A DNA stretch of 13,829 nucleotides from a virus, in UHGV virus genome UHGV-0094592; one strand, given 5' to 3'. Under the pieces are notes generated by a model. That model made no database searches. It was not told where the DNA came from and was given only the letters and a program-made list of their open reading frames with translations. Both the position numbers and the translations under genes were made by a program. Positions 4,473 to 12,003 of this stretch are shown here, one piece after another; the stretch's first letter is position 1, and every line of letters starts with the position of its first letter.

Positions 4473-4637
4473 TTAGTTAAGGTTTCAGGTTGGTGTGTTG
4501 GTGTTATCTTTCCCTTTTTATTCATAGAGATAGAGCGAAAAACAAAACCACCACCACCAACCCGAAAAGGCTCATAAATAGCGAAAATCCGCAAGGTCGC
4601 CGCCCCGTAACGGGTCCATATGCCGGAAAGGACCCGT
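4473..4637 (-). other. Lambda-type cos site (cosQ-cosN-cosB) with exact cosN 12-mer GGGCGGCGACCT (minus strand, 4605..4594)
   Basis: Minus strand reads ...TTTACGGGTCCTTTCCGG-CATATGGACCCGTTACG-GGGCGGCGACCT-TGCGGATTTTCGCTATTTATGAGCCTTTTCGGG. Lambda right and left ends read ...TTTACGGGTCCTTTCCGGTGATCCGACAGGTTACG / GGGCGGCGACCTCGCGGGTTTTCGCTATTTATGAAAATTTTCCGG. It lies directly upstream of the Nu1-like gene, as in lambda. Confidence 0.85.
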
Positions 4638-7796: not shown

Positions 7797-7990
7797 CTCC
7801 CCACTTTTACTACCCACTTTTTGAAATTACCCAACGTCTCCCCACTTCTTTTTTTTGTGATTCTAACGTGATGTTTTTCAATGTGTTTTTTATTCCCCAC
7901 TTTTTGGGGTATATACAGGTGGGAAAGTGGGGAATCACGTTTCAATTTTGTTAAATTCCCCACACTCCCCACTTTTACTACCCACTTTTT
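7797..7990. repeat. Putative origin of replication: iteron array (CCCCACTTTT family) flanking an AT-rich core
   Basis: 23-bp direct repeat CTCCCCACTTTTACTACCCACTTTT at 7797-7821 and 7965-7989. Additional TCCCCACTT copies at 7837-7848, 7893-7905, 7957-7966 and an inverted copy at 7924-7934. Located directly 3' of the helicase gene. Confidence 0.7.
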
Positions 7991-9404
7991 ACAGTGGGCG
8001 CACGTCATCACCGTCAATAGCAATAACGCCATCACCTTCCAGCTTGTACAGCCAGCGCCGGAAGTGTTTCATCTCATACCCCAGCTTTTTCATATCATCG
8101 CGCAACAACGGAATAGTGCATTTATCTCCGCGCTGTGTGCGTGAACGGATACAGCCCCATAGCGCGGCATGATTCTCCGTCTTGTTCCCGGCTTCCTCGA
8201 TGCGCTCCAGTTCAACGGGTGGGCGCGGCTTATCCACAACAACCAGCGACGTGATTAACTCCCCGTCAGTGTCGGTAAAAAGCTCCACCACACGTAAATC
8301 GTATGCGGCCTCTTTCAGTTCCTCCGCGTCCTTCATTTTTGTGCAGGAGATAACCAGGGCTTCACTGTCTGCACCTTCACGGCGAATACGGTATTCAGCG
8401 TCCAGAGATGCACGAAATGCACTGGAACCACGCGCCCCCTTTGTTTCATCCTTGCCGGAATGGTGAACCACCAGCACCGTGGCCCCTGTGCGGCGTTTCA
8501 GTTCGTCACATCCACGGATAAACGCCCCCATATCCCGCGCGTCATTTTCATCATTACCGCCAAAGCAACGCGCCAGCGTATCAAGAATAATCATGCGTAC
8601 CGGTTTACCCGTTTCCCGTTCAACCTGGCGGGAAGCGATGACCATTTCATCAACATCAAGCGGGACTGCCGGAAAAATCGGGCGGTTTACCAGGTACAGA
8701 TTTTCCACCCGTTCATCATTAACGATTTCCCATGCCTTGATACGGCGGGGGACACCAATGCCACCTTCACCGACAACATACATCACCGAACCATGCGCCA
8801 CCCTGCGGCCTCCCCAGTGACGGCCAGTGGCAACATGACACGCCCAGGAACACGCGAGGAACGATTTATAGGAACCGCTCGCGCCGTATGTGCTGCACAA
8901 TGAATTAGCCGGAATCACGCCCTTAACGACATAATCAAGCTGTGTGTCGTACCCTGCAGATCCAATGCTCATTGGTAGCGTGGTTTTTCGCTGGCTGTAT
9001 TGCTCGTCAGTAAGTATTTCCCCGCGCTCTGCCTGTTCGCGGATCCGTTGCAGGTAGTCGTGCCAGTTCTCCAGCTTCTGGCTGTGCATTCCATCAGGGT
9101 AATAATTCGCATCCCGTACACCTGCCGCCGCCAGCTTTTGCCCGATAGCATTAATATTTGACGGCTTGATGTGGCCTGCCTTGTACAGCCGGACACAATA
9201 GCGACCATCGTCGATAATTTTCAGGTCTGCCAGTTCGTCAAGCTGGCTGTCTCCCAGCCATACAGGCGGGACGTTATCACCAGCAAGTCGCCCGTCCTGT
9301 TCCTGCCACTGTTTCGCGTGCGCCCAGGCATCACTACCCGCAAAAATAATGACTTCGGTCATTTTGTCGTGTGGCTGTTTTTTTAAGTTCGGTGCCAGTT
9401 TCAT
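7989..9404 (-). CDS. Replication helicase, RepA/AAA_25-like P-loop NTPase with an N-terminal domain of unknown function
   Basis: 471 aa. P-loop-like YGASGSYKSF, Walker B-like RMIILDTLARCFGG and the VLVVHHSGKD motif typical of RepA/AAA_25-type helicases. RBS AGGGG. Start overlaps the upstream stop (ATGA). Confidence 0.8.
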   Translation of the reverse strand: MKLAPNLKKQPHDKMTEVIIFAGSDAWAHAKQWQEQDGRLAGDNVPPVWLGDSQLDELADLKIIDDGRYCVRLYKAGHIKPSNINAIGQKLAAAGVRDANYYPDGMHSQKLENWHDYLQRIREQAERGEILTDEQYSQRKTTLPMSIGSAGYDTQLDYVVKGVIPANSLCSTYGASGSYKSFLACSWACHVATGRHWGGRRVAHGSVMYVVGEGGIGVPRRIKAWEIVNDERVENLYLVNRPIFPAVPLDVDEMVIASRQVERETGKPVRMIILDTLARCFGGNDENDARDMGAFIRGCDELKRRTGATVLVVHHSGKDETKGARGSSAFRASLDAEYRIRREGADSEALVISCTKMKDAEELKEAAYDLRVVELFTDTDGELITSLVVVDKPRPPVELERIEEAGNKTENHAALWGCIRSRTQRGDKCTIPLLRDDMKKLGYEMKHFRRWLYKLEGDGVIAIDGDDVRPL

Positions 9405-10127: not shown

Positions 10128-10356
10128 GGCTCACCACCTCCATATCAGCCATGATAATTTTGCTGGCCTCATTCAGTGCCATATCAGCACTAAGTTGCAT
10201 TACAGCCAGTGAATGAGGAACGAAAGCCCCGGCATATTCTGTTTCACTGGTAGCGTGCTTATGCGCCCTGTCCGCGATAACAGAAATATCAATCAGCGCA
10301 TCAATCAGTGTTTTGATTGCTTCGGCGGCTGCGTCCGGACGGGTGTTATTGCACAT
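10120..10356 (-). CDS. Hypothetical protein (78 aa)
   Basis: RBS GGGGG upstream of ATG 10356; 8-nt overlap with the downstream gene. Confidence 0.55.
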   Translation of the reverse strand: MCNNTRPDAAAEAIKTLIDALIDISVIADRAHKHATSETEYAGAFVPHSLAVMQLSADMALNEASKIIMADMEVVSHE

Positions 10357-10552
10357 GGTGCACCCCCTGACGAATACGGGCGGCGAATACCATCACGCAG
10401 CCAGCCGGTGATTGCTGACGGGCTTCCTGTTCGCTGGTGGCCTCAATGGTAATCACGCGCGGTTGTGCCGTACTCAGGGCGATAAAACGCCAGATGTATT
10501 TATTCAGGTTGTGCGAGTCCCGCCCTTGCGGGTGTATGGTATGATTTCTCAT
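10346..10552 (-). CDS. Hypothetical protein (68 aa), first gene of the replication-module operon (ORF track lists a TTG-start version 10346..10642)
   Basis: ATG at 10552 is preceded by GAGG. The longer version would extend into the operator/promoter region. Confidence 0.5.
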   Translation of the reverse strand: MRNHTIHPQGRDSHNLNKYIWRFIALSTAQPRVITIEATSEQEARQQSPAGCVMVFAARIRQGVHHVQ

Positions 10553-10571
10553 AGCAGCCTCGATAATCTTG

Positions 10572-11762
10572 CTATCGTTGGTGGTTAGACGCCCCGTATG
10601 TGTTTCCGGCACTGCGGGGCGTTGCTCTTTGTATTTCAACAATTCTTTTGGTGTGTTTCATGTTATGAGCGCATGAAACACACGTCAAGGCTTTTTGTAT
10701 TTCTTTTTTTGTGTATACTGAAACACACCGATGATTAGGAGTTTCAGAAATGGCAACGGCTAACAAAAACGCAAAATCACAACTGACAACTGTCAGAGTC
10801 CCACTAGATGTTATGCAAGGGATGGAATCCGTTAAGCTGGACGGCGAAAGCAATGCCGGATTTATCGTAACCGCCATGCGCGGAGAAATAGCCCGCCGCC
10901 AAGCAGAAGGCAGCGGAGAAAATCCCCTTGTGTCGTCACTGGATGCCCTGGCTAAGGTCGAACAAATCGGCATCAAAGCAGCGGAAGAAATCGGGCAGCT
11001 TGTCACCGTTGCACGCGAAGAACTCCAGCGTCGCAAGACCAAAGAACCAGAGTAATCACCATCAGCGCCGTGGTGTAAGGTATTACGGCGCATTGCTATG
11101 CAGGACAACACAATGACCGATAAAGAATTGACCAAAACATTATCACCGGCACGGAAAAGACGGCGCAGAAAGATAGAGCATGAATCAGAAAGATTCGCGC
11201 CATGTGCTTTTGCTCTTGAGAAATTCCTTAAAGAGCACAGGAAAAAGCTCTCGTTGCAAACCTTGGAACGAACCAAATCTGACTGATCACATTGCCCACC
11301 AGCCGCAAATGTGGCATTGTTGGTGATGCTCATGCGTTGGGGATAACGTGTAGCTTGTGTCGAGGGGCCACCGTAGCGGGTGGCCTTTGTTTTGCCTGTT
11401 ATCCGGCAATTGTGGCGCTTCGCCACACGGTTGATATAATCCCACTGCTCAGATTCATTTTTTGCGCAGTAGGTTAATTGTTCACAAAGGCGCTCCGGCA
11501 ACGGGGCGCTTTTTGTTTTTATTAGTTTGTAGAAACCTGACTCAGAGATAATGCTCATATTCTGATTGCCGTCAGGGGTGTAAGTTAAATTTACTCCCTT
11601 TTTATCATCAAACATCTGCAACGCTCTGGCGTTAACAATATTGGTTTCACTCCCGCCAGTAAGGCCGGAAATAACCGGAATAATTTCGGCAAAATTTTGC
11701 AGATTCTGTTTTTCAGGACGAACGAAGCCCCGCCCTTGTTCGGGAGAATATCCAGTATTCAT
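10572..11762 (-). CDS. Long open frame; only the N-terminal ~100 codons (from ATG 11762) look protein-like, with a possible Bro-N/KilA-N-like motif. The rest is probably non-coding or a pseudogene remnant
   Basis: N-terminus contains IISESGFYKLIKTKS, resembling a Bro-N-type motif as I recall it. The C-terminal two thirds are Ser/Cys/Arg-rich and antisense to two plus-strand ORFs with good RBSs, and span two plus-oriented terminators. Confidence 0.3.
   Translation of the reverse strand: MNTGYSPEQGRGFVRPEKQNLQNFAEIIPVISGLTGGSETNIVNARALQMFDDKKGVNLTYTPDGNQNMSIISESGFYKLIKTKSAPLPERLCEQLTYCAKNESEQWDYINRVAKRHNCRITGKTKATRYGGPSTQATRYPQRMSITNNATFAAGGQCDQSDLVRSKVCNESFFLCSLRNFSRAKAHGANLSDSCSIFLRRLFRAGDNVLVNSLSVIVLSCIAMRRNTLHHGADGDYSGSLVLRRWSSSRATVTSCPISSAALMPICSTLARASSDDTRGFSPLPSAWRRAISPRMAVTINPALLSPSSLTDSIPCITSSGTLTVVSCDFAFLLAVAISETPNHRCVSVYTKKEIQKALTCVSCAHNMKHTKRIVEIQRATPRSAGNTYGASNHQR
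10651..10688 (-). promoter_or_regulatory. Sigma70-like promoter for the minus-strand operon (TTGACG-17-TAACAT) fully overlapped by a 12-bp inverted-repeat operator
   Basis: Minus strand -35 TTGACG (10688..10683) and -10 TAACAT (10665..10660). Operator GTGTGTTTCATG-9bp-CATGAAACACAC spans 10651-10683. Related GAAACACA sites lie at 10720-10728 and in the hairpin loop at 10596-10627. Confidence 0.6.
10750..11055 (+). CDS. Hypothetical regulator-like protein (101 aa), divergently transcribed from the island operons; candidate repressor
   Basis: Strong RBS TAGGAG 8 nt upstream. Plausible -10 TATACT (10714-10719) with an operator half-site at the predicted start. Balanced composition; N-terminal beta-strand plus helix pattern (TTVRVPLDVMQGMESVKL) reminiscent of ribbon-helix-helix proteins. 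Confidence 0.6.
   Translation: MATANKNAKSQLTTVRVPLDVMQGMESVKLDGESNAGFIVTAMRGEIARRQAEGSGENPLVSSLDALAKVEQIGIKAAEEIGQLVTVAREELQRRKTKEPE
11113..11286 (+). CDS. Hypothetical small basic protein (57 aa; ORF track lists 11098..11286)
   Basis: ATG at 11113 has AGGA 7 nt upstream; very basic (RKRRRRK) N-terminal segment. Confidence 0.45.
   Translation: MTDKELTKTLSPARKRRRRKIEHESERFAPCAFALEKFLKEHRKKLSLQTLERTKSD
11366..11393 (+). terminator. Rho-independent terminator (stem GGCCACC/GGTGGCC, then TTTGTTTT) for the plus-strand unit
   Basis: Perfect 7-bp stem with 6-nt loop and a T-rich tail on the plus strand. Confidence 0.6.
11490..11520 (+). terminator. Second plus-strand rho-independent terminator (stem GCGCTCCG/CGGGGCGC, GCAA tetraloop, TTTTTGTTTTT)
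   Basis: 8-bp stem with one G-U pair, GNRA-type loop, and 11-nt T-rich tail. Confidence 0.65.
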
Positions 11763-11814
11763 GGTTAGATCTCTGTATTAGTGGATGGGTGGCGGCTGTG
11801 TGCCGCCAGCCTGA

Positions 11815-12003
11815 TTAGTGAACTGCCTCGCAGCTTTCCTTCCATGCCAGAACTTCGGATAAAGACCAGCCAACGGAACGACCGCCGAGCTTACGCCGTG
11901 ATGGGAATTGTCCGGTTTTTTCCAGGCGGTACCGACATGAACGGCTCAGGCCTGTAAGTTGCTGACATTCTTTTTCACGTATAAAGCGATCTGTGCTTAA
12001 CAC
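11815..12003 (-). CDS. alpA: AlpA-family (prophage CP4-57-type) transcriptional regulator, 62 aa from GTG start
   Basis: Motif ...CQQLTGLSRSCRYRLEKTGQFPSRRKLGGRSVGWSLSEVLAWKESC is the AlpA/Vis-type HTH signature. GTG at 12003 is preceded by AGGGGGA. ORF track lists a longer 11815..12171 version. Confidence 0.8.
   Translation of the reverse strand: MLSTDRFIREKECQQLTGLSRSCRYRLEKTGQFPSRRKLGGRSVGWSLSEVLAWKESCEAVH

Follow-up and report, generated by a model that had tools for sequence, protein, structure and literature searches.

A candidate ribbon-helix-helix repressor operon antisense to an eta/kil-like reading frame in a Gram-negative phage-inducible chromosomal island

What is the role of two small plus-strand genes embedded in a Gram-negative phage-inducible chromosomal island? 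The question is raised by the UHGV virus genome UHGV-0094592, a stretch of 13,829 nt (hereafter the window), in which a first-pass annotation had singled out a pair of small genes, here named ORF1 and ORF2, as a possible repressor, toxin-antitoxin-like or immunity module. On sequence evidence, ORF1 and ORF2 form a real plus-strand operon of two genes with its own terminators, lying antisense inside a long minus-strand open reading frame (ORF) that resembles the eta/kil region of the satellite phage P4. The elements of this region are as follows.

10572-11762, minus strand: eta-like long ORF of 396 codons, covering ORF1 and ORF2 completely
10599-10729, strand not applicable: candidate operator cluster of TGAAACACA repeats
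10652-10660 (minus), 10674-10682 (plus) and 10719-10727 (plus): exact copies of TGAAACACA
10599-10607 and 10630-10638: copies of TGAAACACA with one mismatch
10660-10688, minus strand: sigma-70-like site TTGACG-17-TAACAT, putative promoter of the Icd-like/replication operon
10714-10719, plus strand: -10-like hexamer TATACT, putatively serving the ORF1-ORF2 transcript
10750-11055, plus strand: ORF1, 101 amino acids, YlcI/YnfO-family protein of ribbon-helix-helix (RHH) type with an extra C-terminal helix, proposed repressor
11113-11286, plus strand: ORF2, 57 amino acids, basic two-helix protein in a variable accessory slot
11287-11362, plus strand: predicted 3' untranslated stretch, from the ORF2 stop to the first terminator
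11363-11398, plus strand: intrinsic terminator T1, -18.5 kcal/mol
11484-11523, plus strand: intrinsic terminator T2, -20.5 kcal/mol, z -5.6

The existence of both genes, as first annotated, is confirmed by their ORFs, Shine-Dalgarno sites and coding-type substitutions. ORF1 has the ribosome-binding sequence TAGGAG 8 nt ahead of its ATG, while ORF2 starts at the ATG at 11113, with AGGA 7 nt upstream; a further upstream ATG (11098) is missing from other alleles, and PGAP calls the 174-nt version in some genomes. Between diverged alleles, the differences at codon positions 1, 2 and 3 number 10, 7 and 41 in ORF1 and 3, 5 and 12 in ORF2. Read in the plus frame, ORF1 has a ratio of non-synonymous to synonymous substitution rates (dN/dS) of 0.07-0.13, and ORF2 has one of 0.17-0.23 when divergent alleles are compared and of 0.43-0.53 in two pairs of low divergence. 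For both genes, every pair gives a lower value in the plus frame than in the antisense frame.

The proteins had been described as belonging to no recognisable family, which does not hold. ORF1 matches the NCBIfam YlcI/YnfO family (NF041551) with 63.2 bits against a cutoff of 30 over residues 9-50, as does the short allele in locus L003 (59.7 bits), and its whole length aligns with phrog_6522; for ORF2, the match is phrog_21027 (E 2e-14). Full-length homologues of ORF1 with 65-90% identity were found in Escherichia, Salmonella, Citrobacter, Klebsiella, Enterobacter, Yersinia, Serratia, Xenorhabdus, Photorhabdus, Edwardsiella and Cronobacter. Aligning them shows a hypervariable stretch at residues 2-17 and an almost invariant one at 52-95. 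The AlphaFold2 model (pLDDT 81) has an extended N-terminus, helices at residues 19-28 and 35-55 and a long helix at 59-97, which corresponds to the strand-helix-turn-helix order with a G-x-S/T/N turn, the sequence DGESN lying between the helices. Using hhalign, the segment LTTVRVP was aligned in register with FNLRWP, the DNA-reading strand of Arc, although the similarity is marginal (E 0.0045), as it is to Mnt (E 0.053). Other ORF1 alleles gave marginal matches to Arc, HicB and RHH_10 and a match above the cutoff to DUF3950, while fold searches with ORF1 were uninformative. The profile searches and structure prediction that the first-pass annotation had proposed thus place ORF1 in the YlcI/YnfO family, with an RHH-like model and a C-terminal helix, and bear out its suggestion of an RHH-like N-terminus. 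That ORF1 is an RHH DNA-binding protein is therefore likely but not proven. The only match in a PDB sequence search with ORF1, which we treat as a lead only, was a weak resemblance of residues 45-86 (10882-11007) to the helix-hairpin-helix of the Hef nuclease (PDB 1x2i, E 0.004); AlphaFold models this segment as a single continuous helix.

The hypervariable N-terminus of ORF1 has a counterpart in the DNA in front of the gene. The whole 13.8-kb window contains exactly three perfect copies of the 9-mer TGAAACACA; they are confined to 76 bp (10652-10727) and show both inverted and direct repeat geometry. Two of them form an inverted pair flanking the -10 element of the minus-strand TTGACG-17-TAACAT site, and another copy begins on the last base of the TATACT hexamer. 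Four alleles were each found to have palindromes of their own, and the same layout recurs in other islands with different repeats (GTGTTGAACAC three times, GGTAATTACC twice, or TGTAAG/CTTACA). Each of 31 N-terminal alleles of ORF1 is accompanied by its own repeated motif (8-mer; 8-11 bp), and identical or similar N-terminal strands share motifs even between genera: the strand QSVTARI goes with GTGTAAGA in both E. coli and Superficieibacter, and the strands YQMRL and YQIRL go with TAATTA. The promoter layout TTGAC(G/A)-17/18-TAxxxT also recurs across alleles; a consensus promoter was detected on the Icd strand in 43 regions, and in 34 of these the allele-specific repeat overlaps it. This co-variation of strand and motif is the strongest evidence that ORF1 binds the repeats; repression itself is what we infer. 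Because the allele-specific repeats overlap a divergent promoter-like site, a repressor is the best reading of ORF1, in agreement with the earlier suggestion of a divergent regulatory unit with a repressor candidate.

At its other end, the operon is closed by hairpins. T1 consists of GGGGCCACC, a loop and GGTGGCC(CU), followed by UUUGUUUUG, and for T2 none of 200 shuffles was equally stable. A terminator lies 90-125 nt past ORF2 in all 56 unique downstream regions of related islands, with several sequence variants of the stem in which pairing is preserved. The first-pass annotation was right to see tandem terminators here, both being hairpins with a T-run, but they lie beyond the range 10750-11286 that it gave for the unit. 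On the minus strand, the complement of the T-run precedes each hairpin, so the terminators should act in one direction only. The equivalents of the TATACT hexamer in other alleles are CATACT and TATATT.

How the operon relates to the strand opposite is the next question, since it lies entirely within the eta-like ORF. The alpA gene lies immediately upstream of this ORF, whose N-terminal part resembles Bro-N (weak matches to Bro-N and to anti-repressor PHROGs) and whose middle part is antisense to ORF2 and ORF1. The view that the pair was the only plus-strand unit agrees with the RefSeq annotation of an identical island, but it overlooked the 396-codon minus-strand ORF, and the accompanying picture, in which everything else ran on the minus strand with no overlap, has to be replaced by that of a unit embedded antisense in an eta/kil-like frame. 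The frame contains no stop, against 12-15 stops in the other two minus-strand frames over the same stretch, and when the plus-strand genes were recoded and the spacers shuffled, the probability of such an open frame was about 0.002 per allele. None of the 78 unique relatives has a stop in this frame across the RHH gene. Rahnella, Enterobacter, Rosenbergiella, Superficieibacter, Intestinirhabdus and Acerihabitans likewise have an open frame there, although their sequences are unrelated. In most related islands, the eta-like ORF runs on in frame into the Icd-like domain (58 of the 78 relatives), and in nine it ends at the Icd-like start, as in the window. In all 59 unique RHH sequences, covering both of the RHH classes described below, the third codon positions of the two strands coincide. 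No selection on the amino acids of the minus frame was detected: of the changes that are silent in the plus frame, 20 are also silent in the minus frame, where 21.4 would be expected (z -0.8 to -1.5). With the minus frame open and no such selection on it, the sequence is set by the plus-strand genes, and selection on the minus frame seems to act solely to keep it open. The arrangement is a clean and testable case of antisense overlap, in which one gene determines the sequence and an open frame is apparently all that the other requires.

Annotation pipelines differ on which of the two strands to call. On 352 contigs, the exact 396-residue antisense ORF carries the label of a hypothetical or Bro-N protein. 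At 2325-2729 of locus L004 (E. coli O157:H7), RefSeq/PGAP omits a 57-residue Arc-like RHH gene as well as ORF2; all that it lists is an Icd-like fragment on the opposite strand, marked 'pseudogene'.

The arrangement invites comparison with P4; the Bro zone and its RNA immunity have been described (PMC10111431). In P4, the transcript from an internal constitutive promoter is terminated by an interaction between the CI RNA and seqA, translation of full-length Eta from an upstream late promoter blocks this termination, and Kil is a nested C-terminal product (PMC10111431). In our analysis, P4 Eta (214 amino acids) begins at the end of vis, an alpA homologue, and its C-terminus is the same Icd-like domain (NF033153, 73 bits). 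P4 and the island in the window therefore share a long ORF that follows an alpA/vis homologue, and that in most relatives of the island leads into the same Icd-like domain, together with an internal promoter for the replication operon and an immunity determinant embedded in the long ORF. The frame being kept open in the island would be consistent with translation preventing termination, as in P4. In P4, however, the determinant is a same-strand RNA (C4/isrK), whereas here it would be an opposite-strand protein operon with candidate DNA operators, and, unlike in P4, a frameshift separates the long ORF of the window from Icd-like.

As a positive control, Rfam models placed C4 and isrK inside eta of P4 (74.9 and 60.8 bits). 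Both RNAs were also detected in locus L092, an E. albertii locus with no RHH gene, while neither was found in the window (Rfam, E<=1) or in 17 RHH-bearing loci. Conversely, an RHH gene of either the YlcI-like or the Arc-like class is present in all 97 loci that have upstream sequence and lack C4/isrK; these two classes are unrelated, occupy the same position and each come with a Shine-Dalgarno site, operators and a terminator. As the RNAs and the RHH gene are mutually exclusive in the loci examined, we propose the RHH operon as a protein replacement for the P4-type RNA immunity. The conserved ORF2 block had itself been considered as a C4/CI-type RNA and was rejected, as the whole-window Rfam search at E<=1 found no RNA family there.

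These comparisons lead to a model that we favour with slightly better than even confidence, in which ORF1 is the immunity repressor of the island, transcription driven by AlpA reads through the eta-like frame and ORF2 is cargo; all of its functional steps are ones that we infer. The N-terminal strand of ORF1 would read the allele-specific repeats, TGAAACACA in the window, which bracket the Icd-like/replication promoter and abut the -10 element of ORF1. From these positions, ORF1 would both keep the island quiescent and regulate itself, and a role in quiescence at that site would make it the protein equivalent of the CI RNA/seqA immunity. The long C-terminal helix probably mediates oligomerisation across several sites, as in Mnt of P22. 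P4 suggests by analogy that, when a helper infects, transcription driven by AlpA would come in from upstream and run towards the repressor mRNA; this transcript would be shielded from termination because the open eta-like frame is translated, so that the replication operon could be expressed despite the repressor. ORF2 would be cargo transcribed together with ORF1 from a variable slot. The AlpA switch would gain its missing half from a protein repressor that acts on allele-specific operators, and such a repressor would also account for the specificity of immunity between co-resident islands. In the founding paper, a global repressor in Gram-negative islands was called 'unclear' (PMC6092414), and our literature searches retrieved no paper giving these genes a function and nothing relevant on a repressor of Gram-negative islands, although a 2026 survey lists a 'YlcI/YnfO family protein' among the accessory genes of E. 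cloacae islands. The candidate repressor module is widespread: well over a thousand E. coli genomes carry it, as do many genera of Enterobacterales.

Several observations weigh against this model. The mutual exclusivity of RNA and protein rests on a small sample, with two RNA-type loci only. For the ORF1-ORF2 transcript, no good -35 element was seen, and a promoter scan gave no call. In the window, the eta-like ORF and Icd-like are in different frames, the ORF ending 20 nt before the Icd-like ATG, and in 11 of the 78 relatives the ORF stops in the intergenic region. The out-of-frame allele could be a frameshift variant that uses translational re-initiation; locus L005 shares this arrangement (10552-10642). 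Membership of the YlcI/YnfO family implies no repression either, since the K-12 members lie beside cos in lambdoid prophages: YlcI (DLP12) and YnfO (Qin) carry the same NCBIfam N-terminal domain as ORF1 but are short and located beside cos and nohD, while ORF1 has an extra conserved helix of about 45 residues. In K-12 itself (locus L185, 580251-580445), ylcI of DLP12 adjoins the cos region and is oriented divergently to the terminase-like nohD, and the family is thus not confined to the immunity regions of satellites.

A stronger version of the model, which we regard as a tentative and rather doubtful possibility, holds that both strands are translated over about 540 bp in a deeply conserved, phase-locked overlap that acts as a convergent switch, with ORF1 as a new master repressor and ORF2 as an effector. 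In the quiescent state, the RHH repressor and the cargo gene would be expressed from the plus strand; once AlpA is on, eta-like transcription and translation would run head-on through the repressor operon and silence it, and RNA polymerase would thereby pass the operators and reach the replication genes. If true, a master repressor of Gram-negative phage-inducible islands would so far have gone unnoticed, and ORF2 would be a new effector aimed at the helper or at phages.

Among the explanations that compete with an immunity repressor, the one that survives best, although we consider it improbable, gives ORF1 a local role rather than that of master repressor: it would fine-tune the level of the Bro-N/Icd-like products or of its own operon, and quiescence would reflect the lack of AlpA alone. 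AlpA is an activator in EcCICFT073, where its overexpression suffices for induction, so that AlpA alone accounts for the published induction and no repressor was needed (PMC6092414); these data likewise count against ORF1 as the immunity repressor. The operators are limited to a single 130-bp region, and there is a parallel in the immI region of P22, in which Arc and Mnt control only the antirepressor. Against fine-tuning stand the controlled promoter, which heads the entire Icd-like/DUF4222/helicase operon, and the position of the module, which is that of the P4 immunity RNA, along with the exclusivity described above. The likeness to P22 extends to ORF1 being a small RHH-type protein that is divergently transcribed, with candidate operator repeats that cover the promoter of an operon of the antirepressor type. 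In Mnt, as in ORF1, the RHH domain is followed by a C-terminal helix. Unlike Mnt and Arc, however, ORF1 resides in a satellite rather than a phage and antisense inside another ORF, and the sequence similarity is marginal. Another comparison is offered by Stl/Rpr, the master repressors of Gram-positive phage-inducible islands, which, like ORF1, are located between int and the replication module and divergent from the replication operon (PMC6092414). No homology to them was detected, derepression by a helper protein is not indicated for ORF1, and Gram-negative islands, unlike the Stl/Rpr systems, additionally use the activator AlpA.

The second gene raises a question of its own. As first noted, its product is basic (isoelectric point 10.3, net charge +7.7). 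The ORF2 family has an invariant core, ERFAPCAFALEKFLKE, and variable ends, and is found only in Escherichia/Shigella; an exhaustive profile search returned only nine cluster representatives, one of them a spurious repeat protein. The AlphaFold2 model, of moderate confidence (pLDDT 69), has helices at residues 12-27 and 29-56, and the N-terminal helix, ARKRRRRKIEHESERF, is rich in arginine. No match was found in Pfam, NCBIfam, the toxin and defence models of PADLOC or a PDB sequence search. In many RHH-bearing islands, ORF2 is absent or replaced. Other islands carry, in the slot after the RHH gene, 50-residue hydrophobic peptides, a 129-residue membrane protein, a 118-residue SWIM-like protein or proteins of 69-75 residues that have the motif AP..FAL(D/E)xF in common with ORF2 (the varied cargo was seen in L111, L121, L125, L147, L161 and L175), and in some there is nothing between the RHH gene and the terminator. 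This variable content argues against an obligate two-component system and favours ORF2 being accessory cargo expressed along with the repressor.

That this cargo is a payload, namely an arginine-rich, N/Nun-like RNA-binding protein or an anti-phage factor, made while the island is quiescent and directed against helper or competing lambdoid phages, we consider quite unlikely. The idea is suggested by the arginine-rich helix and by co-transcription with the repressor from a variable slot; rexAB of lambda and nun of HK022 are parallel cases of cargo expressed with a repressor. The likeness is compositional only, however, with no detectable homology to N, Nun or defence models.

Less probable still, and very unlikely in our view, is the toxin-antitoxin character proposed in the first-pass annotation, here taken as a type II toxin-antitoxin or abortive-infection pair in which ORF1 would be the RHH antitoxin and autorepressor and ORF2 the toxin. 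An operon of two genes with the RHH gene first, the sizes of the genes and the palindromes at the operon's own promoter are indeed the usual layout of RHH type II systems, but here the partner gene is not conserved and belongs to no recognisable toxin family. In many islands, and in other genera, the RHH gene directly precedes a terminator or unrelated small genes, the dN/dS of ORF1 is very low across genera that lack ORF2, and the operators are located on the divergent replication promoter. With no conserved cognate toxin and no match to toxin or defence models, this candidate was rejected. Finally, the notion that ORF1 and ORF2 are non-functional shadow ORFs of the minus-strand Bro-N/Icd-like gene, which their position wholly within a 396-codon ORF that some pipelines annotate instead and their omission by PGAP in O157:H7 might suggest, is highly implausible and was rejected on the consistently lower plus-frame dN/dS, the minus-frame synonymy at expectation and the presence of two unrelated RHH classes, each with its own expression signals.

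The remaining genes of the window agree with the island type named above, a layout typified by EcCICFT073 (PMC6092414).

12371-13621, minus strand: tyrosine integrase
11815-12003, minus strand: activator gene alpA (Pfam Phage_AlpA, E 1e-17, and PGAP coordinates)
10346-10552, minus strand: Icd-like (P4 Kil-like) gene (NF033153, 68.9 bits, and PGAP coordinates), the first gene of the replication operon
7989-9404, minus strand: RepA-type helicase
minus strand: DUF4222, SSB, lambda-E-type capsid protein, D-type decoration protein and Nu1-like small terminase

Positions 10300-11800 of the window are 100% identical, over the queried stretch, to a RefSeq E. coli chromosome, in which the island has the same gene order, occupies a site between smrA and abgR and contains a sole plus-strand gene labelled 'YlcI/YnfO family protein'. 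CFT073 was not among the 100%-identity matches of this stretch; identity with EcCICFT073 is thus not established, and we use the label 'EcCICFT073-type' only.

Some minor observations concern other parts of the window. IS66-family pieces occupy 1429-2954, comprising TnpB_IS66 (1429-1722), a helix-turn-helix transposase ORF (1776-2387), an IS66 C-terminal fragment (2451-2636) and a short plus-strand ORF with no Pfam match (2700-2954). This end of the window differs from the RefSeq island with the identical module, which abuts smrA. An imperfect inverted repeat of about 87 nt (4482-4568) lies just upstream of the start of the Nu1-like small terminase gene; it gave spurious mir-3910 matches in Rfam on both strands, and its fold stability is ordinary (z -1.55). 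The Rfam int-alpA RNA (RF02996) was not found in the window at E<=1 and was found in two related islands of other species (L090, 117-185; L094, 153-218). Between the alpA stop and the eta-like ATG, at 11793-11809, there is a GC-rich hairpin with no T-run (GGCGGC-TGTGT-GCCGCC), which is kept in several alleles (L002-L005).

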